Below are positions 19,870 to 56,271 of a DNA stretch of 64,000 bases, in pieces. Both the position numbers and the translations under genes were made by a program. Under the pieces are notes generated by a model. That model had not been told where the DNA came from, did no database searches, and saw only the letters and a program-made list of their open reading frames with translations. This DNA is from Patescibacteria group bacterium (GTDB lineage Bacteria > Patescibacteriota > WWE3 > UBA101185 > UBA10185): assembly GCA_049322215.1 (NCBI GenBank), contig JBMORU010000001.1, positions 388,023-452,022 of the forward strand, given 5' to 3'. Numbering within the stretch: the first letter of the stretch is position 1; each line of letters opens with the position of its first letter.

Positions 19870-20406
19870 ATGAATCAGCCAATGTATATGCGTATGGCCT
19901 ACATTTTGGACGAAAACGGCGATACCTGTGGGTTTGTTAAACATGCACACAGTAGCGCATCCATTTGCCGTTTGGATTTTTCCTGGGTAAACTCGATGAC
20001 GCAAGATTTGTACAAGGCTTTGGTTGCGGTATATGGAATCTACTATCATGACAATGAGGCTATGACTCAAGGTCATGTTGTAATCCCGCTTTTTGATGGG
20101 GAGATCCGCAACAAAAAAGGCTTTGTTATTTCCCAGGCAAATGCGATTCGACGTCGTTTAGAAGCATCTGCAATGGATGAAGTGGTTCGTCGTGCTATGA
20201 CTGCATTATGCTTTACAGAGGACAGAACTGCTGTTTTGACCTCTATCGGACGTTTGTTGCAGACTTTGCACAAAAACCCTGCAGCTTTCGCCCAGGCCAT
20301 AGAAGAAGTTGACAGTACTGTACCTGAAGATTTTGCCCTGCTCGTCGGCGCCCTTTCGTACCCTGATATGGCACATGTTGTTGGAGCAAAAATTACCTCC
20401 ATTTAG
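19870..20406 (+). CDS. hypothetical protein, G+C-anomalous
   Basis: AAGGAG SD with TATAGTATAAT upstream. Coding region visibly G+C-richer (GCC/CTG/CGT codons) than the flanks. No motif recognised. Confidence 0.5.
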   Translation: MNQPMYMRMAYILDENGDTCGFVKHAHSSASICRLDFSWVNSMTQDLYKALVAVYGIYYHDNEAMTQGHVVIPLFDGEIRNKKGFVISQANAIRRRLEASAMDEVVRRAMTALCFTEDRTAVLTSIGRLLQTLHKNPAAFAQAIEEVDSTVPEDFALLVGALSYPDMAHVVGAKITSI

Positions 20407-21497: not shown

Positions 21498-21526
21498 TTG
21501 ACAATTTTTTACTGTAACCGTAGACT
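21498..21526 (+). promoter_or_regulatory. sigma70-like promoter TTGACA-17-TAGACT with the -10 ending 7 nt before the ATG (leaderless-type)
   Basis: TTGACAattttttactgtaaccgTAGACTaaaatcaATG. Confidence 0.45.
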
Positions 21527-21533
21527 AAAATCA

Positions 21534-23696
21534 ATGTTGCCTGCTGCCTCTGAGAATTTGAATAAACTTTTCAGCCCAAAGTCTATTGCTGTAATAGGTG
21601 CTTCTCGTAACAAAAGGAAACTTGGCTATATAACAGTAAGAAATATAATTGATGCGGGCTTTGAAGGTACCGTTTATCCTGTAAATCCTAAGGCGGATAA
21701 AATCTTAAATTTGCCATGCTATAAATCTGTTAAAGATTTACCTGAAATTCCTGATCTGGCAGTAATTTCTCTTCCAGCTGAGTTAGTTTTAGAAACTCTT
21801 AAAGAGCTCAATGAAAAAAAAGCTAAAAATGTGGTTGTTTATTCTGCCGGTTTCAAAGAAGTAGGTAGTGATGGAAGCAAGCTAGAAAAAGAGGTTATTA
21901 GGTTTGCAAAAAATAATTCCATAAACTTACTAGGCCCCAATTGTTTAGGTTTTGCAAATACTATAGATAAGATCAACGTTACATTTGGTAAAGTAGTTAA
22001 AACTCCGGGAAACTTAAAACTAATTTCTCAATCTGGTGCAATTGCTGCAAGCTTGTTTGACTGGTTTGAGCATGCTGGTATTGGCTTTAGTGATTTTGTA
22101 ACCTTAGGAAACAAGGCAACCATAAATGAAAATACAATTTTAAGTTACTGGTTAGATTATAAGCATGTGGACAAACATCTTGATAATTCGGTAATTTTTT
22201 CAAAATATCAGCCTATTGGCTTATATTTAGAGTCTATAGTTGATGGTCAAAAATTTTTAGATCTAGCTAGTCAAATAACTCCATATAATCCCATGTTTAT
22301 TTTAAAGCCTGGAAAATCTGCGTCAGCAAAAAAAGCTATGCAATCTCACACAGGGGCAATTGCGGGCGAAGATACTGTTTTAAATGTGGCTCTAGAGCAT
22401 GCAGGTATTATTCGTTGTTTTGGTATGGAGGACATGTTTGATTTAGCGCGCTCTTTCGCCTGGATGGAAGCACCTTCAGGATCAAACGTTGCTATAGTTT
22501 CTAATGCAGGAGGTCCTGCAGTAATAAGTGCAGATTTGGTTTCAGAGGCGGGACTAAATTTAATTCAATTAAGTGAAGAAACTAAAAAAACGTTAGAAAC
22601 GCACTTGCCCCGCGCAGCAAGTTTGCTTAATCCTGTAGATGTTTTAGGGGATGCCCTGGCCGATAGGTACAAGTATGCCCTGGAGGCGGTGTTAAGTGAA
22701 AATGATGTTAATGCTGTAATTGTACTACTCACACCACAGATTATGACTGAAATACAGGAAACTGCGGAGGTAATTGGGGACTTAGCAGGAAAATACCAAA
22801 AACCCATATTATGTGCTTTTATTGGTGGAACTGATGTACAAAAGGGAATAGAGGTGCTGAATACGTTTAGAATTCCTTCTTTTCATTTTCCTGAGCGCGC
22901 TGTACGTACCTTAGCCAAAATGTGGTGGTGGCAAAATTGGACAAACACGCATGCTGAAGACGTGGGAAGTTTTATAAAACCCCAGCCAAATGAGTATGTG
23001 TCAAAAGCTACAGAAAGTGTTTTAACAAAGGCGATTGAAAGAAACAGAAAAGTATTAAATAGCTTTGAGGCAAATGACATTTTAAATATTGTTGATATAA
23101 ACACTCCCCCTACGCGCGAAGTGAAAACTTTAGAAGACGCTAAGGATTTTGTAAGTGCTGAAGGGTATCCTGTTGTTTTAAAGCTATCGTCCCCCTTAAT
23201 TTTGCATAAAAAAGACATAGGTGGAGTAATAACTAACATAAATGATGAAAATGCTTTGGTAGAAAATTTTAGTGCAATAAATTCTACTTTAAATTCTTTA
23301 GCTAAAGAGTTTAAGCAAAACACGAGAGTACAAATTCAAAAACAAGTAGCTGCGGGTATAGAAGTAATTGCAGGAATTAAAAAAGATTCTAGCTTTGGCC
23401 ATGTTTTAATGTTTGGTGCTGGAGGTACTCTTGCCGAACTAATTGAAGATAGAAACTTATGCTTAATTCCGGTTTCAAATGTTGCTGCTCAACGTTTAGT
23501 AGCGCAGTCTAAAATTGGAAAAATGTTAGAAGGTTATAGAGGTGATAAACCATACAATTTAGAGGGGCTTTATTCACTTTTAGAAAAATTATCTAACTTA
23601 GCTGTGTCTGTTCCTGATTTGCAGGAATTTGAAATTAATCCCATTATTATTACTCATGAAAACATTTGGGCTGTAGATGGAAAGGGTGTTCTTTGA
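21534..23696 (+). CDS. acetyl-CoA synthetase (ADP-forming), fused alpha/beta (NDP-forming acyl-CoA synthetase)
   Basis: CoA-binding N-terminus SIAVIGASRNKRKLGYIT, a succinyl-CoA-synthetase-like domain, and a C-terminal ATP-grasp domain. The ORF track starts at TTG 21498. ATG 21534 is preferred. Confidence 0.75.
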   Translation: MLPAASENLNKLFSPKSIAVIGASRNKRKLGYITVRNIIDAGFEGTVYPVNPKADKILNLPCYKSVKDLPEIPDLAVISLPAELVLETLKELNEKKAKNVVVYSAGFKEVGSDGSKLEKEVIRFAKNNSINLLGPNCLGFANTIDKINVTFGKVVKTPGNLKLISQSGAIAASLFDWFEHAGIGFSDFVTLGNKATINENTILSYWLDYKHVDKHLDNSVIFSKYQPIGLYLESIVDGQKFLDLASQITPYNPMFILKPGKSASAKKAMQSHTGAIAGEDTVLNVALEHAGIIRCFGMEDMFDLARSFAWMEAPSGSNVAIVSNAGGPAVISADLVSEAGLNLIQLSEETKKTLETHLPRAASLLNPVDVLGDALADRYKYALEAVLSENDVNAVIVLLTPQIMTEIQETAEVIGDLAGKYQKPILCAFIGGTDVQKGIEVLNTFRIPSFHFPERAVRTLAKMWWWQNWTNTHAEDVGSFIKPQPNEYVSKATESVLTKAIERNRKVLNSFEANDILNIVDINTPPTREVKTLEDAKDFVSAEGYPVVLKLSSPLILHKKDIGGVITNINDENALVENFSAINSTLNSLAKEFKQNTRVQIQKQVAAGIEVIAGIKKDSSFGHVLMFGAGGTLAELIEDRNLCLIPVSNVAAQRLVAQSKIGKMLEGYRGDKPYNLEGLYSLLEKLSNLAVSVPDLQEFEINPIIITHENIWAVDGKGVL

Positions 23697-24910
23697 ACAC
23701 AAAGAAAGTAATCATTGTAGGTGGTGGCTTTGGCGGAATTAAGTGTGCTTTAGATTTATCTTCTAAACATTTGTCTAATACTAAAATAATATTAATAAGC
23801 GACAAAAGCCACTTTGAATATCATGCCGCACTATATAGAGTAGTCGCAGGAAGTTCTCCATTAGAAGTTTGTATTCCCCTAAACGACATATTTAAGGGTA
23901 AAAATGTAGAAGTTATTACAGATAAAGTTTTGAGCATAGATTTAGAAAAAAATACTATGTGTGGCCAATCGGATTGCACATATTCTTATGATTATTTAGT
24001 TTTAGCTTTAGGTAGCGAGACTGCTTATTTTGATATCCCAGGACTGCAAGAAAACTCATTTGGAATGAAATCTATTAATGAAGCGCTACGTTTGAATAAG
24101 CATTTACATAATGTGTTTTCAGAATGCGCTTTAAATATAGAAACGGGAGACACTGAGTGTGCGACACACATTGTAGTTGTAGGTGGGGGCGCTACAGGCA
24201 CCGAGTTAGCGGCAGAACTTGCTATTTACACAAGAGAATTAGCTCAAAAGCATGGTTTAGACCCAAGATTAGTTACTATTGATTTAATTGAACTATCTTC
24301 TCATTTGGTGTCTTTATTGCCTGAAGACGCTTCGTTAAAAATTGAAGAACGTATGAGGTCGCTAGGGGTAAATATATTTCTTAACCGCGGTGTAGTAAAA
24401 GAAGAAGTAGAAAAAGTTTATTTAAAAGATATTGAAATGCGTTCTAAAACGGTTATATGGACAGCCGGAACCCGTGCTAACCGATTGTACAAGGATGTTG
24501 GTTTAGAGGTAAATAAAAAGGGGCAGGTTTCTGTAACAAATCATTTACAAGCTGTAGGGCATAATAATGTATTTGTTATTGGAGACGGCGCTGCTACAAA
24601 TTACTCTGGTATGGCACAAACAGCCTTGTTTGATGGCGAATACGTTGCTGATGTCATATATGCGTTGTTTCAGCAAAAAGAGCCAAAAGAGTATTCTGCG
24701 CCCCCTCCGTTTTATTCTATACCCGTAGGTCGTGACTGGGCAGCTTATGTAAACGGCAGTAAACGTTATTACGGTAAAGTTGGTTGGTGGTTACGTAGGT
24801 GGGTGGATTTTCATGTATTTAGCACTATTCTTCCATTTGAAAAGGCTGTAGTAGCATTTCAAGATGGTAGAACAATTAGTGAAACGTGTGATATATGCAG
24901 TAAAAACTAA
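23693..24910 (+). CDS. FAD/NAD(P)-binding oxidoreductase, type II NADH dehydrogenase-like
   Basis: Two Rossmann GxGxxG motifs (VIIVGGGFGG and VVVGGGATGTELAAE). TTG start overlapping the upstream stop, preceded by AAAGGG. The ORF track starts at 23666. Confidence 0.6.
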   Translation: MNTKKVIIVGGGFGGIKCALDLSSKHLSNTKIILISDKSHFEYHAALYRVVAGSSPLEVCIPLNDIFKGKNVEVITDKVLSIDLEKNTMCGQSDCTYSYDYLVLALGSETAYFDIPGLQENSFGMKSINEALRLNKHLHNVFSECALNIETGDTECATHIVVVGGGATGTELAAELAIYTRELAQKHGLDPRLVTIDLIELSSHLVSLLPEDASLKIEERMRSLGVNIFLNRGVVKEEVEKVYLKDIEMRSKTVIWTAGTRANRLYKDVGLEVNKKGQVSVTNHLQAVGHNNVFVIGDGAATNYSGMAQTALFDGEYVADVIYALFQQKEPKEYSAPPPFYSIPVGRDWAAYVNGSKRYYGKVGWWLRRWVDFHVFSTILPFEKAVVAFQDGRTISETCDICSKN

Positions 24911-24964
24911 GTGTTTTGGTTGTCATTACTTTTTTTTGTTTAATATTTCCTTTACAATAAATTA

Positions 24965-26683
24965 ATGTTAACTGCCTCAAAAAACCCCTTTACAATAAAA
25001 ATAGGAGGCGAAGCCGGTTTTGGTGTTATGTCTGCCGGATTGGTTATTTCGAAAGTTGCAACACGTTCTGGATATTATACTTTTGACTATACAGAATACC
25101 CGTCTTTAATTCGTGGTGGTCATAATGTTATGCAGGTTTCTATATCTGCCGAGCCTGTATCCTCTCAGTTTTACTCTACCGAATTTTTAATAGCCTTAAA
25201 TCAAGAAACAATAAATTTACATAAACATGAACTTCACGAAAGTTCTATAGTTTTGTATGATCCTGAAAATAAAATCGAATGCAGTGATTTACCAGACTCT
25301 GTAATTAAAGTAGAGGTTCCTTTACTACAGATTGTGCGTGATGTAGAAGGAACTTTTGTTATGCGCAACACTATTGCAGTAGGAGCAGCTCTTGCCTTAC
25401 TAGGCGGTAACAAACAACATTTACTTGATTTAGTAGAAGAGCAATTTGGGCATAAAAACGAAGCTATTCTTCAAAAAAACCTATTAGCCTGCGAAAAAGC
25501 ATTTAAATACATTGAGACTAATTATGCAGACAAAATTCATGAGATCTTAAAGCAAAAAAGCAAAGTAACTAAGCAAATTGTAGTTACAGGCAATGAAGCA
25601 ATAGGCTTAGGAGCTATTGCAGGTGGAATGACCTTTGCTGCAATTTATCCTATGACACCAACTTCTAATATTTTACATACAATTGCGCCTTACCAAGAAA
25701 AGTACGGCTATATTTATAAACAGCCTGAAGATGAATTATCTGCAGTAAATATGGCAATAGGTGCGAGTTTGGGAGGTGCACGCGCCATGGTTGCTACCTC
25801 TGGGGGCGGTTTTTGTTTAATGGCCGAAGGATATGGCTTAGCGGGCTTAACCGAGACTCCTTTAGTAATTATTGAGGGTATGCGTGGGGCACCTGCAACA
25901 GGGCTTCCAACTTGGACTGAGCAAGGAGACCTTAGATTTGTTTTGCATGCCCATCAAGGGGATTTCCCTAGAATAGTTTTAGCTGCTGGGGATGTGGAAG
26001 AATGTTTTAATTTATCTATGCAAGCCTTTAATTTAGCAGACAGGTATCAAACTCCGGTTGTTCTTTTAGTAGATAAACATGTTTTAGAAAGCCATCAAAG
26101 TGTTGAACCTTTTGACAGTTCGCATTTTGAAGTTGATCGCGGGCGCTTTACTACTAAGGAAGAAAACGATTATGCGCGTTATCGAGACGCTGAAGATGGT
26201 ATTTCTTTAAGAACAGTGCCAGGGGTGGGGAATCATTTTGTTGCAAATTCCGATGAACATGATCAGTTTGGTTATTCTAATGAAGAAATTGACAATAGAA
26301 ACACTCAAATGAGAAAGCGCATGAAAAAGCTTGAAACCTGTGCTCAAAAAGATATGAAACCCCCCACTTTGTTTGGTCCTGAAGACGCTGAAGTAACCAT
26401 AGTATCTTGGGGAAGTAACAAAGGTGCAATATTAGAAGCATTAAAGTATCTGCCTAATACTAACTTTTTGCATATAACATGGCTAAATCCTTTTCCTACT
26501 GAGGAAATAAAACAAGTTTTGCTAAATGCAAAATATTTAATCAATATAGAATGTAACTATTCAGCTCAATTAAGAGGGTTAATTGCAGAAAAAACTGGTG
26601 TGACCATTTTAGACATTTTTCTAAAATATGACGGTAGACCTTTTTATCCGCATGAAATTATAGAAAAGGTTAAAAGTATATGA
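24965..26683 (+). CDS. 2-oxoacid:ferredoxin oxidoreductase, fused gamma-alpha subunit
   Basis: Gamma-like N-terminus (IKIGGEAGFGVMSAG), alpha core VVTGNEAIGLGAIAGGMTFAAIYPMTPTS. Leaderless-type -10 TACAAT 6 nt before the ATG. Confidence 0.75.
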   Translation: MLTASKNPFTIKIGGEAGFGVMSAGLVISKVATRSGYYTFDYTEYPSLIRGGHNVMQVSISAEPVSSQFYSTEFLIALNQETINLHKHELHESSIVLYDPENKIECSDLPDSVIKVEVPLLQIVRDVEGTFVMRNTIAVGAALALLGGNKQHLLDLVEEQFGHKNEAILQKNLLACEKAFKYIETNYADKIHEILKQKSKVTKQIVVTGNEAIGLGAIAGGMTFAAIYPMTPTSNILHTIAPYQEKYGYIYKQPEDELSAVNMAIGASLGGARAMVATSGGGFCLMAEGYGLAGLTETPLVIIEGMRGAPATGLPTWTEQGDLRFVLHAHQGDFPRIVLAAGDVEECFNLSMQAFNLADRYQTPVVLLVDKHVLESHQSVEPFDSSHFEVDRGRFTTKEENDYARYRDAEDGISLRTVPGVGNHFVANSDEHDQFGYSNEEIDNRNTQMRKRMKKLETCAQKDMKPPTLFGPEDAEVTIVSWGSNKGAILEALKYLPNTNFLHITWLNPFPTEEIKQVLLNAKYLINIECNYSAQLRGLIAEKTGVTILDIFLKYDGRPFYPHEIIEKVKSI

Positions 26684-27546
26684 ATAACGAGGAAAATAAA
26701 AAAAACTTAAAAACACCTAACAAGCCTAATTGGTGCCCGGGATGTGGCGATTTAGCTATTTGGACCGCTTTTAAAAATGCTGCAGCTGAAAAAGACTGGA
26801 ATAACCACAACACTGCCTTTGTAGCAGGTGTTGGATGCCATGGGCATATGGTTAATTTTGTACGTTTAACCGCTTTAGAAGGTTTACATGGTCGTGCTTT
26901 ACCTGTTGCAAGTGGACTGAAAATGGCAAATTCTGATTTAAATGTTTTTGTTTTTTCAGGTGATGGTGACGGTTTGGCCGAAGGGGGAAATCATTTTTTA
27001 CACACCGCACGTAGAAATCATGACTTAACTATGCTTTTACATGATAATGCCGTATATGGTTTAACAACCGGACAAACTTCTCCAAGGTCACCAAAAGGCT
27101 ATATTTCAAAGTCTACACCTGATGGCTCTTTTGAAGAGCCTTTGCACCCTTTAACTTTAGCTATTGCCGTTGGGGCTAGTTTTGTTGCACGTGCTTATTC
27201 GGGGGATATAGAATATTTAACCAAGCTAATCATTGAAGCAAATGAGCATAAAGGATTTGCTTTAATTGATATTCTTCAACCTTGTGTAACCTTTAACAAA
27301 ATGTATTCTCATATTTTTTATCAAAGAAACACCTACTATTTAGATGAAAATTACGATTTTACAAATAAAATGGCAGCTTTAGAAAAATCTATGGAATGGG
27401 AAGAAAACAGAATTCCCTTAGGAGTGTTTTACAAAGTAGATGCGCCATCTTACGAGTCACAAATTCCACAAATTAAAGATACTGCTTTAGTAAAGCAGAA
27501 TATGAGTAAAAGAGATATTTCGGAATTGCTTGAAAAGTTAAGTTAG
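26680..27546 (+). CDS. 2-oxoacid:ferredoxin oxidoreductase beta subunit (TPP-binding)
   Basis: CPGCGD and the GDGDG...N TPP motif. Start overlaps the upstream stop (ATGA). Confidence 0.75.
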   Translation: MNNEENKKNLKTPNKPNWCPGCGDLAIWTAFKNAAAEKDWNNHNTAFVAGVGCHGHMVNFVRLTALEGLHGRALPVASGLKMANSDLNVFVFSGDGDGLAEGGNHFLHTARRNHDLTMLLHDNAVYGLTTGQTSPRSPKGYISKSTPDGSFEEPLHPLTLAIAVGASFVARAYSGDIEYLTKLIIEANEHKGFALIDILQPCVTFNKMYSHIFYQRNTYYLDENYDFTNKMAALEKSMEWEENRIPLGVFYKVDAPSYESQIPQIKDTALVKQNMSKRDISELLEKLS

Positions 27547-28004
27547 TTAGAAATTTCTTCTGCTAAAACTGTAGCCCATGCTGCAGCTTTTGCTTCATTG
27601 TTTGTTTGGTCAAAATAATACCCATCAATTTTTAAAGATGGAACAATCTGTACGCAATTAGCCTTTTTAAAGAAATCTTCAAGAATATCTACAGCACCAC
27701 AAAAATGTAAGTAAGAAGTATCCCCACACCCAAAGAAGGCTACTTTTTTTTCGTTAAGCTTTACCTTTTTTAAGGAATCTAAGAATTCTGAAATTGTTTC
27801 ATGTGGTTGACCTTCTGCATCGTTTACCTTCCAGCTTGGAGATCCAACTAGAATTAAGTCGAAACTGTTTATATTTTGCACATTTACATCGACTGCTTTT
27901 AAGCATGTTATGTCAAAGTTAGCAGTCTTAAGTTCGTTTTCAATTATTTTGCTTGTGAGATAAGTGCTTCCTGAATTTGAAGCATAAACAATGAGCAGTT
28001 TCAT
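27543..28004 (-). CDS. flavodoxin
   Basis: LIVYASNSGST FMN-binding N-terminus. 153 aa. Confidence 0.7.
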   Translation of the reverse strand: MKLLIVYASNSGSTYLTSKIIENELKTANFDITCLKAVDVNVQNINSFDLILVGSPSWKVNDAEGQPHETISEFLDSLKKVKLNEKKVAFFGCGDTSYLHFCGAVDILEDFFKKANCVQIVPSLKIDGYYFDQTNNEAKAAAWATVLAEEISN

Positions 28005-28056
28005 ATATACAGTATAAAGGTAATAAGTTTATATTAAAACTTTTAAGTAGAAAAAG

Positions 28057-28092
28057 GGCTACCAAAAAATGAAAAACAATTTTTTGGTAGCC
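28057..28092 (-). terminator. 14-bp perfect hairpin (GGCTACCAAAAAAT / ATTTTTTGGTAGCC) downstream of the GC-rich ORF and followed on the minus strand by a T-rich run
   Basis: Seen directly. Confidence 0.5.
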
Positions 28093-28184
28093 TTGATGTT
28101 TCTAAAGCTTTCTATGTTGCTGTTGCTTGTGACGGCACGTTAGCTGCTTAAAAAAACTTTAAAAACACCACATAGCGACAGGTA

Positions 28185-28556
28185 CTAAACTTGCACGGGC
28201 TGGAGATCGGTGACCCTGATTGCGGTGCGGCCGTTTGCAGAAATTTCCATTGTTGCTTTCGCATAGGCAAAGTCACGGCCATTCATCCATGCGGGTTCTT
28301 TGCTCGGGGTTTCTACCACAACGGGGGAAAGAGGCCCACCATCACCGCGTTTGCGTCGTTGCGTCCATGGAATGTGGATACCATAGTCACGCATGGGGCA
28401 TAAGCGCAGCACGATGGCTTCTTTGTCCTTTTGACGCGTCAGGGTTACAACACCCGTAACTCCTGCAAGCGCTGCTCCATGAGTCACACCAGCCTGGGTC
28501 AAAACTTCGTCCTTCATTTCACTTTTCTGCGAGCTGTGATCAGTAATTACTCTCAT
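28185..28556 (-). CDS. hypothetical protein, strongly G+C-anomalous (roughly 55% by eye versus about one-third background)
   Basis: Clean ORF with a composition unlike its flanks. Divergent from the MarR gene. No motif recognised. Confidence 0.5.
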   Translation of the reverse strand: MRVITDHSSQKSEMKDEVLTQAGVTHGAALAGVTGVVTLTRQKDKEAIVLRLCPMRDYGIHIPWTQRRKRGDGGPLSPVVVETPSKEPAWMNGRDFAYAKATMEISANGRTAIRVTDLQPVQV

Positions 28557-28722
28557 TTTTGTCTCCTTATCGGTTGTTTACTTCAAATCTTCGATCGAAT
28601 ATTTGCCGTCACTATAGTGGGAAGTATACTATACTTAGGGAAAATTATGCAACTAGGGTAAGTACAATAATAGTTATTGTGTGGTATGCTAAAAAAATGA
28701 TATTTATTACTTATCTGCCTAT

Positions 28723-29175
28723 ATGTCGGAGTATCCTGCAATTATAAAAAGCCTCAGACCTTATAACTTTTACTTATTACACGGTAATGCTCATAAATCG
28801 ATGCATAGAGAGCTTGAGTTTGTTTTATCAAAGTATGATTTAACTCCACCAGAATGGACATTACTTGGTCAGTTAGAAGAAATTGGACCATTAAGACTAA
28901 CAAAGCTTGCAGATTTACTAAATGTACGAATGCCCTTTGTAAGTAATTTAGTTGCTACATTGAAAGATAAAGGTTTAGTAGAAATAGTAGATTCAAATAC
29001 TGACAAACGCGTTAAAATTGCATCTCTTTCAGGGGAGTCACGTAGTAAATTGCCTGAGATTGAGGAAAATGTGCTTATGCATATGACTGATTTATTAAAT
29101 GGTGTTTCGTCTTTAGAACTAGCATCTTACGCTAAGGTATTAAAGCTTATTGCAGCAAACTATAGCGAAGATTAA
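28723..29175 (+). CDS. MarR-family transcriptional regulator
   Basis: Winged-helix pattern LTPPEWTLLGQLEEIGPLRLTKLADLL... Length 150 aa. Confidence 0.7.
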   Translation: MSEYPAIIKSLRPYNFYLLHGNAHKSMHRELEFVLSKYDLTPPEWTLLGQLEEIGPLRLTKLADLLNVRMPFVSNLVATLKDKGLVEIVDSNTDKRVKIASLSGESRSKLPEIEENVLMHMTDLLNGVSSLELASYAKVLKLIAANYSED

Positions 29176-29423
29176 TTTAGTAAATCGTTTAGGTTTAGGT
29201 CTTCTTCAGTTTCTGTGTCTATTTCGTAAACAAAGTCTTTTTTTATATCTACAAATTCGTTTTCTACTTCTTTAATTCTTTCTCTACATTGTTTTATTAA
29301 TTCTTTACCTAGTTTTAATTTTTTTAAACCCTCATCTAAGTCGATTTCTTCTTCTTGAAACCACTTATTTATTTCTTCTAAATCTTTTATAGCTTTCGTA
29401 AAATCAAATTTTTTTGCTGTCAT
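29172..29423 (-). CDS. xseB: exodeoxyribonuclease VII small subunit
   Basis: 83-aa helical protein (FTKAIKDLEEINKWFQEEEIDLDEGLKKLKLGKELIKQCRERI) immediately downstream of xseA. Confidence 0.75.
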   Translation of the reverse strand: MTAKKFDFTKAIKDLEEINKWFQEEEIDLDEGLKKLKLGKELIKQCRERIKEVENEFVDIKKDFVYEIDTETEEDLNLNDLLN

Positions 29424-29432
29424 AGTTTTGTT

Positions 29433-30761
29433 TTAATTTTGTACTTTTGAAATTATTTTTCCATTTGCTAATTCGGTATTTAGTATATCACCCTGTTTTA
29501 CTGATTTAGCATTTTTTAGTATTTTTCCGTTGGAATTGCGGGAAATGCTGTAACCCTGCTTTAGTTTAAGTTTAGGATCAGATACTTTTAGTAAGTTGCT
29601 GTGATTTTCTAGCTTTTTATTAATTTCTTTATACCATGTACCAATGCTCACACTTGTAATTGCCGAAAGGTTTTGTAAGTCTTTTTGAAATGAATGTTTC
29701 GCAAAGTTAAATGCGTATATATTTTGCATGTAGTCTTTTTCTAGTGTTTTAAATGTATTTAATACATGTTTAAAACTCATTATTTGTGAGCTAGCCAAGT
29801 TGTTTACACTAATTTTTATGCTATTTAGCTGTCGTTCAAACTGATTTGTGAGTTCTGTTTCTATTGTTTGTAAGTTGTCACATGTTGTTTTTAAAATTCT
29901 TTTAAATTCTCTTACTAGTGCTGTTTCTAACTGTTTTATTGTTGTGCTTAATTCAATCCAAGGTTCTGCCAATATTTTACCTGCATGTGTCGGAGTAGAA
30001 GCTCTTGCATCTGCAACTAAATCGGCTATTGTCACATCGTTTTCATGGCCTATCGCGGAAATCACAGGTATTTTTGATGCCGCAATTGCACGTGCCACCC
30101 CTTCACTATTAAATGCCTGTAAATTTTCTAAACTGCCTCCTCCTCGTGTTAGTACTAAAACATCTATCTTTTCGGGAAATTCGTTAAGGGTTCTAATGGC
30201 ATTTATTATGCTGTCTATTGATTGGTTACCTTCTACTCTTACGTCATGAAAAAGTATTTTGTATCCAAAATTTCCTAAATGAGTTTCAAAGTCTTTTTTT
30301 GCATCGCTTTTGTCCGCGGTTATTAGCCCTACTGTTTTAACATATTGTGGAATAGGTTTTTTACTTTCTATATCAAAGTATCCTTGTTTTTGAAGTTGTT
30401 CCTTTAATTTTTCAAAGGCCTTGCGTAATGCACCTTCTCCTACCGGGATTATGTTATCTGCTACAAAAGTAAATTTTCCGGTACGCACGTAAATGTTGGC
30501 ACTTCCAAAAATTTTTACTTCCATGCCTTCTTCAAGTTCTATACCTAAAGCACTAAACCGGCTTTTCCATATTAAACAACTAATGCTTGCATCATTTTTT
30601 GCATCAGTTAATGTAAAAAAAACTGTGTTGCCTCTATTTGTAAAAGAGCTTATTTCTCCCTGTATATTAAATTTATATTTTCCTATTACGTCGTTTAGTA
30701 ATTCTATAAATTCAGATACTGAGAGCAAGGGCTCTTTGAATCGGTTAGGTAGTTCACCCAT
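29433..30761 (-). CDS. xseA: exodeoxyribonuclease VII large subunit
   Basis: N-terminal OB fold (LSVSEFIELLNDVIG...IQGEISSF...VFFTLTD). 442 aa. Confidence 0.8.
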   Translation of the reverse strand: MGELPNRFKEPLLSVSEFIELLNDVIGKYKFNIQGEISSFTNRGNTVFFTLTDAKNDASISCLIWKSRFSALGIELEEGMEVKIFGSANIYVRTGKFTFVADNIIPVGEGALRKAFEKLKEQLQKQGYFDIESKKPIPQYVKTVGLITADKSDAKKDFETHLGNFGYKILFHDVRVEGNQSIDSIINAIRTLNEFPEKIDVLVLTRGGGSLENLQAFNSEGVARAIAASKIPVISAIGHENDVTIADLVADARASTPTHAGKILAEPWIELSTTIKQLETALVREFKRILKTTCDNLQTIETELTNQFERQLNSIKISVNNLASSQIMSFKHVLNTFKTLEKDYMQNIYAFNFAKHSFQKDLQNLSAITSVSIGTWYKEINKKLENHSNLLKVSDPKLKLKQGYSISRNSNGKILKNAKSVKQGDILNTELANGKIISKVQN

Positions 30762-35856: not shown

Positions 35857-36303
35857 TTAATGCATCCAGCCGCGCCCTTCACCCATGTGTTTTGGACCAC
35901 GTCCTAAATCTAAGTCTTGCAAGTCAATTCCTTCAGATTCAGCCCAAGTTCTTAGTGCATCATTTCCTTGTCTAAAGTTATTTTGCATTTCCCCTCTGGT
36001 AGCATGCATTTCTTCCATTTTTGCAAGAATTGTGCTTTTTTGTTCTTCGGTAAGTTTGCCTTCTTGTACAGCTGCGTTTAGTCTAGTTTCTAGTTCTTGT
36101 CTGCGTTCTGCATGCATGGTTTCGCGTTCCTCTTCCATAAAAGTTTGTACTTCATTAGCATCTAGACCGAATCTTTCAGTTAATCTTTGAACAAAAGGTG
36201 GTAGAGTCTCTGCTGTTTCTGCGGCTACTGTTTTTAATCCTGCAGAGCCTAGTAAACCAATTGAACTTAGTACTAGTATTGGTATAACAATTTTTTTATT
36301 CAT
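35857..36303 (-). CDS. periplasmic LTXXQ-motif stress protein (CpxP/Spy-like)
   Basis: GGAGGTG SD, 6-nt spacer, ATG. Signal peptide. LTEEQ (LTXXQ) motif. Located downstream of a two-component system. The ORF track starts at TTG 36318. Confidence 0.55.
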   Translation of the reverse strand: MNKKIVIPILVLSSIGLLGSAGLKTVAAETAETLPPFVQRLTERFGLDANEVQTFMEEERETMHAERRQELETRLNAAVQEGKLTEEQKSTILAKMEEMHATRGEMQNNFRQGNDALRTWAESEGIDLQDLDLGRGPKHMGEGRGWMH

Positions 36304-36369
36304 GTTATTCACCTCCAAAATGTTAATTAATTACTGGATATAATTTACTAAAGGTAGCTGAGAAACTGC

Positions 36370-55914: not shown

Positions 55915-56271
55915 TTAAGGCATTGGTGTAGGTGGTTTATTGCCTTTGAAAGCCTTAATCCATGCTTCAAAGTTTTCAGGTGAACACGAGTAAAAATCTC
56001 GTGATTCGTCCCATTCTCCAGGAGCGTATTCCCATACAATTTTAAGCTTTGCACGTGGATGTGGTGTTTTATACTTGTTCCAATGTTCAAGTGCTGCCTT
56101 TGGACCTCCCCAGAATGCTGCGACAATAACGTCAACGACACCTTTTGCTTCTACCCCTTCAACCAATATCCTAACTTTTTCACCAAACTTAAGGCTTTCA
56201 GGCTTTCTTCCAACTACCACTACTTTAGCCTGTGATCCGTTTGGTTCTTGTCGTGTGTGAAAAGTACCCAT
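55915..56271 (-). CDS. hypothetical protein (moderately G+C-elevated)
   Basis: ORF only. Confidence 0.4.
   Translation of the reverse strand: MGTFHTRQEPNGSQAKVVVVGRKPESLKFGEKVRILVEGVEAKGVVDVIVAAFWGGPKAALEHWNKYKTPHPRAKLKIVWEYAPGEWDESRDFYSCSPENFEAWIKAFKGNKPPTPMP

Follow-up and report, generated by a model that had tools for sequence, protein, structure and literature searches.

An open reading frame (ORF) on the minus strand at positions 28185-28556 is most probably a real protein-coding gene, and we read the locus as a whole as a genuine, lineage-restricted orphan that was acquired horizontally, forms its own transcription unit, and would be co-repressed along with the divergent gene of a MarR-family regulator. 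We give this combined reading slightly better than even odds (a probability of roughly 0.55). Composition, junction integrity, coding signals, the lack of homologues, and the absence from relatives are direct results, whereas the origin, the transcription unit, and the regulation are what we infer from them and from the layout of the locus. Positions refer to the window, i.e., the whole stretch of 64,000 nucleotides that was analyzed; its GC content is 34.6%, and the contig that contains it, 1.11 Mb long, is from an uncultured Patescibacteria group bacterium. The NCBI record carries the ORF as ACOZAO_02195, annotated as hypothetical. The gene and its surroundings comprise the following features.

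28185-28556, minus strand: orphan coding sequence of 123 aa, with ATG start and TAG stop, from the ORF listing
28166-28500, no strand: GC-rich block of 335 bp, from a maximum-likelihood change-point fit and GC profiles
28563-28568, minus strand: Shine-Dalgarno sequence AAGGAG, read in the sequence, 6 nt upstream of the first ATG
28047-28092, minus strand: intrinsic terminator of the orphan gene, stem-loop plus tail, CUUUUUCUAC
27543-28004, minus strand: native flavodoxin gene downstream of the orphan, with TATACT 6 nt upstream of its ATG
28723-29175, plus strand: gene for a MarR-family regulator of 150 aa, divergent from the orphan; the protein has no cysteine

Composition of the orphan ORF

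The ORF has a GC content of 0.527 (52.7%; GC1 0.613, GC2 0.468, and GC3 0.500), whereas among the 66 remaining window ORFs of 100 aa or more the mean is 0.349, with an sd of 0.030 and no value above 0.451. The resulting deviation of z = +5.9 bears out the preliminary description of this gene as far richer in G+C than any other in the window. The excess extends to third codon positions, where the GC3 of 0.50 stands 4.6 sd above the window mean of ∼0.27, and the nativeness of synonymous codon choice is the lowest in the window (z = -5.7). Other ORFs, among them 55915-56271 (GC3 0.277) and 35857-36318 (GC3 0.234), have raised GC1 and GC2 and a low GC3; thus, high GC elsewhere in the window comes with no rise at third positions. 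Two other orphans with elevated GC in the window are unrelated to this one. The change-point fit assigned 55.2% GC to the block at 28166-28500 versus 32.8% outside of it, with a log-likelihood ratio (LLR) of 27.7. The boundaries are therefore as sharp as had been described, but their supposed match to the ORF holds at one end only: the left edge (support 28161-28198) coincides with the stop codon, whereas the right edge (support 28493-28546) falls 10-63 nt within the ORF. It follows from the position of the right edge that the first 13-19 codons, the ribosome-binding site, and the promoter are native-like in composition.

The divergent promoter region and the MarR neighbour

The protein encoded at 28723-29175 is a bona fide member of the MarR family. 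It matched PF12802 with 42.6 bits (cut-off 27) and PF01047 with 41.2 bits (cut-off 24.6), its residues 23-146 align to residues 18-141 of PDB 3oop, and SlyA along with other MarR chains also matched. When the 150-aa start is used, this alignment covers both the N-terminal and the C-terminal dimerisation helices, which is not the case for the start chosen by PGAP (28801), from which a shorter form of 124 aa results. The NCBIfam profiles for HpaR, SlyA, and OhrR matched below their equivalog cut-offs, and because the protein contains no cysteine it is not a thiol sensor of the OhrR type. A homologue search at a strict E-value cut-off of 1e-10 returned only the protein itself. MarR-family repressors (MarR, OhrR, and SlyA) typically autoregulate by binding palindromes that overlap the promoter elements of divergent genes. 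The spacer between the orphan and marR contains four palindromes.

28590-28599, no strand: palindrome TTCGATCGAA, in what would be the orphan's 5' untranslated region, absent from the preliminary description
28610-28619, no strand: palindrome CACTATAGTG, with the -10-like hexamer TATAGT on the plus strand (28613-28618) and on the minus strand (28616 to 28611)
28622-28636, no strand: palindrome AAGTATAcTATACTT, 15 bp with arms and centre of 7-1-7, holding back-to-back -10-like TATACT hexamers
28664-28680, no strand: palindrome ACAATAAtagTTATTGT, 17 bp (7-3-7), in the predicted marR leader or promoter-proximal region, unique in the window

Three of these had been noticed before and lie where they were reported; two of them extend further than was described, to AAGTATAcTATACTT (within which the 8-bp palindrome AGTATACT is nested) and to ACAATAAtagTTATTGT, and the fourth, TTCGATCGAA, had been missed. 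The accompanying remark that they are of the size expected of MarR operators is right for the 15-bp and 17-bp palindromes, but those of 8 and 10 bp would by themselves be too short for a MarR dimer. The excess of palindromes over chance is modest: seven with arms of at least 5 nt were observed versus 1.7 in dinucleotide shuffles (p about 0.009), the longest arm gave p about 0.10 in the same comparison, and the palindrome density of the spacer ranks fifth among the 27 intergenic regions of the window.

A position weight matrix trained on the window's own start-proximal -10 boxes gave TATAGT in CACTATAGTG scores of 4.77 (plus strand) and 5.14 (minus strand), both above the 99.5th percentile for the window. 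In AAGTATAcTATACTT, TATACT scored 6.77 on the minus strand (28628 to 28623) and 6.32 and 7.47 on the plus strand (28625-28630 and 28630-28635, respectively), and two of these three hexamers are in the top 0.1% of scores in the window. The best -10-like hexamers of the spacer, on both strands, thus fall exactly inside CACTATAGTG and AAGTATAcTATACTT. For each of the pairs 28613-28618 (plus) with 28616 to 28611 (minus) and 28625-28630 (plus) with 28628 to 28623 (minus), the transcription starts predicted in silico are ∼21 bp apart. Bacterial bidirectional promoters have been defined by divergent starts separated by 7-25 bp, with 18 bp the commonest spacing, and palindromic symmetry is the look of such a promoter (PMC10268837); the predicted spacing of ∼21 bp is within that definition. 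The simplest reading of CACTATAGTG and AAGTATAcTATACTT is that of a bidirectional promoter whose -10 elements are symmetric and stand back to back. The spacer resembles bacterial bidirectional promoters that arise from -10 symmetry (Warman et al. 2021, as summarised in PMC10268837; PMC12825309) in having near-palindromic TATAGT and TATACT elements on the two strands between divergent genes. The canonical bidirectional promoter has a spacing of 18 bp and reciprocal -7T and -11A positions, whereas the elements here are offset differently, with predicted spacings of 21-26 bp.

Dependence on a -10 element seems to be the rule in this window. A TATAAT-like hexamer ends 5-8 nt (usually 6 nt) before the start in 32 of the 67 window ORFs, versus 14.7% of control ATGs, and a Shine-Dalgarno core precedes only 11 of the 67; leaderless, -10-driven expression therefore seems general, and about half of the genes look leaderless. 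The orphan gene is among the exceptions that use a Shine-Dalgarno sequence. Its transcription would start at a -10-type promoter within the palindromic core at 28611-28636, with a predicted leader of about 48-60 nt and Shine-Dalgarno-dependent translation. Being symmetric, this promoter core would probably also fire rightward toward marR. The best candidate to serve at once as the core of a shared promoter and as the operator for MarR is AAGTATAcTATACTT. If a MarR dimer occupied AAGTATAcTATACTT, the palindrome at 28664-28680, or both, the two -10 boxes would be occluded, and MarR would in this way keep marR and the orphan gene repressed together until released by a ligand. From the divergent orientation alone, control of the orphan by MarR, the local repressor of the preliminary description, is plausible.

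The strongest competitor to this scheme, which we rate somewhat below even odds, accepts the gene as real and takes the palindromes to be symmetric -10 elements and nothing else, with the MarR protein leaving the orphan unregulated and having its operator elsewhere. The coincidence of the top-scoring hexamers of both strands with CACTATAGTG and AAGTATAcTATACTT speaks for this view, as does the divergent start spacing within the 7-25 bp range (PMC10268837). The apparent -10 dependence of promoters in this genome and the unexceptional palindrome density (5/27) are also in its favor. It fits less well with the operator-like sizes of the 15-bp and 17-bp palindromes, with the fact that the latter contains no strong -10 element to explain it, and with the usual autoregulation of MarR-family proteins through palindromes over divergent promoters. 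Co-repression by MarR would have parallels in marRAB, ohrR-ohrA, slyA, and hucR-uricase, where a winged-helix MarR gene is likewise divergent from a small neighbour. Such MarR-target pairs likewise share a short spacer with palindromes over predicted -10 elements. The known pairs control efflux, detoxification, and oxidative-stress targets, whereas the target here would be an orphan; and unlike those pairs, the marR-ORF arrangement was found conserved in no other genome and so leaves no phylogenetic footprint, with its regulation deduced from sequence.

Transcription unit, coding signals, and protein product

The preliminary description placed a perfect 14-bp hairpin downstream of the ORF, and the structure is present as described, with two fully complementary (100%) 14-nt arms (28057-28070 and 28079-28092) that include five G-C pairs and enclose an 8-nt loop. 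It has a folding energy of -18.9 kcal/mol (z = -6.0) and is located 92 nt past the stop codon of the orphan. The minus-strand sequence that directly follows the hairpin, CTTTTTCTAC, is the U-rich tract characteristic of an intrinsic terminator. Neither the hairpin nor the palindromes have a second copy in the window, so they do not represent a repeat family. The orphan transcript would end at this terminator (28092 to 28047), ahead of the flavodoxin promoter. The flavodoxin gene forms a separate transcription unit, since a TATACT of its own lies 6 nt upstream of the ATG, as is typical of leaderless genes.

Among open shuffled frames, just 0.17% equal the codon periodicity of the orphan frame (χ2 = 18.95), which lies inside the 5-95% range of native coding sequence (12.6-51.8, for native chunks of 372 nt). 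The length of the frame is not significant on its own, since at least 120 open codons were present in 17.7% of dinucleotide shuffles of the block. Two single-nucleotide polymorphisms (SNPs) distinguish the ORF in two strains of this organism (28374 and 28290), and both are synonymous changes at third codon positions, although this is a very small sample. The translation-start region shows no more structure than its shuffled counterparts. Our assignment of 28185-28556 as most probably a real gene rests on the Shine-Dalgarno sequence, the periodicity, the synonymous SNPs, and the terminator, together with the lack of an Rfam match and of excess folding that are described below. Pfam searches of the remaining five frames of the block matched no family, which speaks against the block being a piece of some known gene that is read in a different frame or on the opposite strand.

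The predicted product has a mass of 13.5 kDa and a pI of 9.5 and is hydrophilic on average; inspection by eye revealed no signal peptide or membrane segment. An alternating hydrophobic pattern suggests beta strands, and the product would be a small, basic, probably beta-rich cytoplasmic protein. Comparison of the 123-aa sequence with Pfam, PHROGs, NCBIfam, PADLOC, and PDB sequences gave no match, even at E ≤ 1-10. Two homologue searches, together covering ∼15 billion proteins, identified no homologue. In the word-indexed search of 5.8 billion clusters the sole match was the orphan protein itself, and phmmer, run exhaustively against 1.84 billion representatives, returned the protein itself and three weak matches near E = 1e-4; the latter were rejected as artefacts, being long repeat proteins in which short repeated matches sum to the score. 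Searches of phages, plasmids, IMG/VR, and JGI metagenomes gave no match other than one by tblastn at E = 0.8. A single-sequence AlphaFold prediction made with no alignment was uninformative (pLDDT 34.9), no internal duplication was found in the protein, and literature searches with the sample and locus-tag accessions returned nothing relevant.

We consider it unlikely that the block is a non-functional remnant, i.e., a foreign scrap of ∼335 bp left at a break in synteny, with a frame that is open by chance. The openness of the frame would allow this (p about 0.18 when taken alone), as would the complete lack of homologues, the low-confidence structure prediction, and the location of a composition edge within the ORF. 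A chance frame would, however, have to show a periodicity that only 0.17% of open shuffled frames attain. It would also have to begin exactly at an ATG that is the first available and is preceded at optimal spacing by a canonical Shine-Dalgarno sequence, be followed by a dedicated terminator, and have acquired only synonymous changes at its two SNPs. Furthermore, the other five frames provide no Pfam match as the source of such a scrap.

Origin of the gene and less probable explanations

The flavodoxin gene next to the orphan belongs to a module shared with relatives. The closest flavodoxins (58%, 53%, and 50% identical) are encoded in the same series of genes for flavodoxin, OFOR-beta, OFOR-alpha, and ADP-forming acetyl-CoA synthetase (ACS), but the gene upstream of flavodoxin differs from one relative to the next (cation ATPase, DsbD, or DUF378). 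Neither the orphan ORF nor the MarR gene is present at that locus in these flavodoxin-OFOR-ACS relatives. On the other side, the best XseA among 185,579 GTDB species genomes is 47% identical, and xseAB alone is syntenic. The nearest relatives are thus distant (at most 58% identity for flavodoxin and at most 47% for XseA), and the lineage is poorly sampled. Because the upstream genes differ among relatives and none of these has the ORF there, the ORF occupies a synteny break-point and is limited to one species-level lineage; the orphan would now sit with the native flavodoxin-OFOR module on one side and marR-xseBA on the other. It is present in two strains that are 0.45% apart.

Given its unameliorated GC3 and its restriction to one lineage, the gene was probably acquired horizontally, and the donor would be an unsampled organism of about 50-55% GC. 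The proposal that it is a recently acquired cargo gene divides into two parts. Acquisition agrees with the foreign GC content, GC3, and codon usage, with the lack of homologues, and with the absence from the nearest relatives. Cargo, in the sense of a mobile element, found no counterpart in the surroundings: within 10 kb on either side of the ORF there are no integrase or transposase Pfam families, no tRNA flanks it (those of the window are 24 kb and 34 kb away), and no flanking direct repeats or target-site duplication were found around it. A 9-nt inverted repeat, GTGACGGCA/TGCCGTCAC, is situated exactly 48 nt beyond each end of the ORF and cannot be extended; we rejected it as a mark of insertion because about two such repeats per kb are expected by chance. 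An orphan of foreign composition is a known kind of thing, and orphan genes with odd composition are common. Horizontally acquired ORFans and genomic islets are likewise short, lineage-restricted, atypical in composition and codons, and located at breaks in synteny. In most bacteria, the tendency among foreign and orphan genes is toward a higher AT content. In contrast to the usual ORFans, this one is GC-richer than its host and is a solitary gene accompanied by neither mobility genes nor a tRNA anchor nor repeats at its flanks.

The composition edge inside the ORF suggests a variant that we regard as improbable, in which the gene was born in place as a chimera. Here, the foreign GC-rich piece of ∼335 bp (28166-28500) would have landed beside a native bidirectional promoter, and an open frame in it would have been joined to a ribosome-binding site, start codon, and first 13-19 codons that were native, to give a new, expressed protein under MarR control. 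The locus would then be an instance in which a reduced symbiont genome made a gene out of captured DNA, and the protein would have no known protein as its ancestor.

More doubtful still is the idea of an old native gene that owes its composition to constraints on amino acids or expression, with no transfer involved. Both known strains have the gene, mobility signatures are absent, and the 5' end and regulatory signals are native in composition, all of which would suit such an origin. Third codon positions, however, are those least constrained by protein sequence, and it is there that the ORF lies 4.6 sd above the window mean (GC3 0.50), whereas other ORFs with raised GC1 and GC2 have kept a low GC3. 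An ancient native gene had also been considered in the preliminary description; the ORF was absent from the relatives that retain the flavodoxin-OFOR module, as it was from every other relative examined and every database searched.

A structured non-coding RNA gene with an incidental ORF is very unlikely. GC-rich islands in AT-rich genomes are often structured RNA genes, and the block resembles them in being a discrete island of 53-55% GC and 335-370 bp in a 35% GC genome. Its GC content is near that of the stable RNAs of the window (58-72% for tRNAs), its size (∼340-400 nt) is like that of RNase P RNA or tmRNA, and the openness of the frame is not significant. Unlike such RNA genes, the block has no covariance-model match and no excess stability but does have codon periodicity and a ribosome-binding site. 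Rfam searches at the gathering score for the whole window and at E ≤ 10 for 27950-28800 gave no match within the block, and ARAGORN found no tmRNA; these strict and permissive searches thus recognised no known RNA family in the block. Folding of the entire block did not exceed that of shuffles (z = +0.67 on the minus strand and +0.08 on the plus strand), and windows of 120 nt, scanned along each strand, had z values between -1.2 and +2.1 and were equally devoid of signal.

If the preferred reading, a horizontally acquired orphan under MarR co-repression, is correct, a genome-reduced Patescibacteria lineage has gained one more orphan and has wired it to one of its few transcription factors. Accessory genes of this type may play a part in how these bacteria live as symbionts. 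The locus would offer a compact test case in an uncultured phylum, with one regulator, one target, and a palindromic promoter of ∼80 bp, and could be used for studying both MarR control and bidirectional promoters driven by -10 elements. On present evidence the orphan locus raises no new question and offers no clue to what the gene does.

An assembly or binning chimera, for which the only argument is the sharp change in composition itself, can practically be dismissed because the block amounts to 335 bp within a 1.11-Mb contig with native sequence on either side and has the same junctions when its own run is assembled separately and in another run's contig, which differs by 10 SNPs. Across two sequencing runs, three contigs carry the orphan gene with an identical protein sequence, and exact look-ups of MarR and XseB returned only those same contigs. 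Logan contigs from the two runs, including an assembly of the source's own run, have an identical arrangement. The 2237-bp contig of ERR15087771 matches the window with 99.55% identity, with differences at 10 of its 2237 positions, and it spans xseA-xseB-marR-ORF-flavodoxin with the junctions on both sides unchanged. Since these junctions recur in an independent run, the locus is not the mis-join against which the preliminary description had cautioned.

Start-proximal candidate promoter elements and translation signals

Within the window, 32 of the 67 ORFs of at least 100 aa carried a TATAAT- or TATACT-like hexamer ending 5 to 8 nt 5' of the start codon, most often at a distance of exactly 6 nt, as compared to 14.7% of control ATGs. 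These -10-like hexamers were often accompanied by an upstream TG. A Shine-Dalgarno core was detected at only 11 of the 67 ORFs. On the basis of sequence, these frequencies point to widespread leaderless mRNAs and to promoters dominated by the -10 element in this Patescibacteria genome. The following starts exemplify the hexamer.

Plus strand: 8446, 16200 and 24965
Minus strand: 28004, 30761, 38100 and 40653

The start of marR and an overlapping short ORF

The start codon of marR, the divergent neighbor of the orphan gene, is ambiguous; PGAP assigned a 124-aa protein starting at 28801, and another gene caller assigned a 150-aa protein starting at 28723. Residue 23 of the longer form is where the alignments to MarR profiles and to PDB 3oop start, which favors the 150-aa protein as the predicted product. 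Neither a Shine-Dalgarno sequence nor a start-proximal -10 box was found at either of the two starts. On the plus strand at 28682-28747, an extended -10-like element, TGgTATGCT (28682-28690), is followed 6 nt on by an ATG at 28697, a spacing that corresponds to the leaderless geometry typical of the genome studied. From this ATG runs a 16-codon ORF (MIFITYLPICRSILQL), which extends across the start of marR in a different reading frame. In inverted orientation, the stretch surrounding this ATG (28693-28715) is an 83% match to positions 28538-28560, where the orphan gene starts.

Additional ORFs of elevated G+C content

Two other ORFs displayed elevated G+C content together with low scores for native codon usage.

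19870-20406, plus strand: ORF with a GC fraction of 0.451, second lowest in the window for native codon usage
30875/30782-31279, plus strand: ORF with a GC fraction of 0.40, fourth lowest in the window for native codon usage

Neither ORF matched Pfam, PHROG, or NCBIfam, a PADLOC search of the two returned a single, very weak match, and neither is related to the 123-aa orphan ORF. The first also possesses a Shine-Dalgarno core. Both may be further foreign orphan genes.

The flavodoxin module and the flanks of the orphan gene

The module at 21498-28004 encodes flavodoxin, the beta and alpha subunits of 2-oxoacid:ferredoxin oxidoreductase, and ADP-forming acetyl-CoA synthetase, with a pyridine-nucleotide disulfide oxidoreductase as an occasional extra member. 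Its gene order is kept in loci of distant Patescibacteria relatives (L016, L017, and L018), and its flanks are unconserved. When window positions 27864-30100 were compared with the corresponding contig of a second strain (L002), the SNPs were unevenly distributed: five (at 27911-27984, three in third codon positions) lay in the first 94 bp of the flavodoxin gene, and only five in the other ∼2140 bp, where both marR and the 166-bp ORF-marR spacer were free of SNPs. This uneven spread suggests a recombination boundary between the flavodoxin and orphan genes, or a local hot-spot. A perfect 9-nt inverted repeat (GTGACGGCA/TGCCGTCAC; 28129-28137 and 28604-28612) flanks the orphan ORF, each copy exactly 48 nt beyond one of its ends; because about two such repeats per kb are expected by chance and this one does not extend further, it is probably a coincidence.
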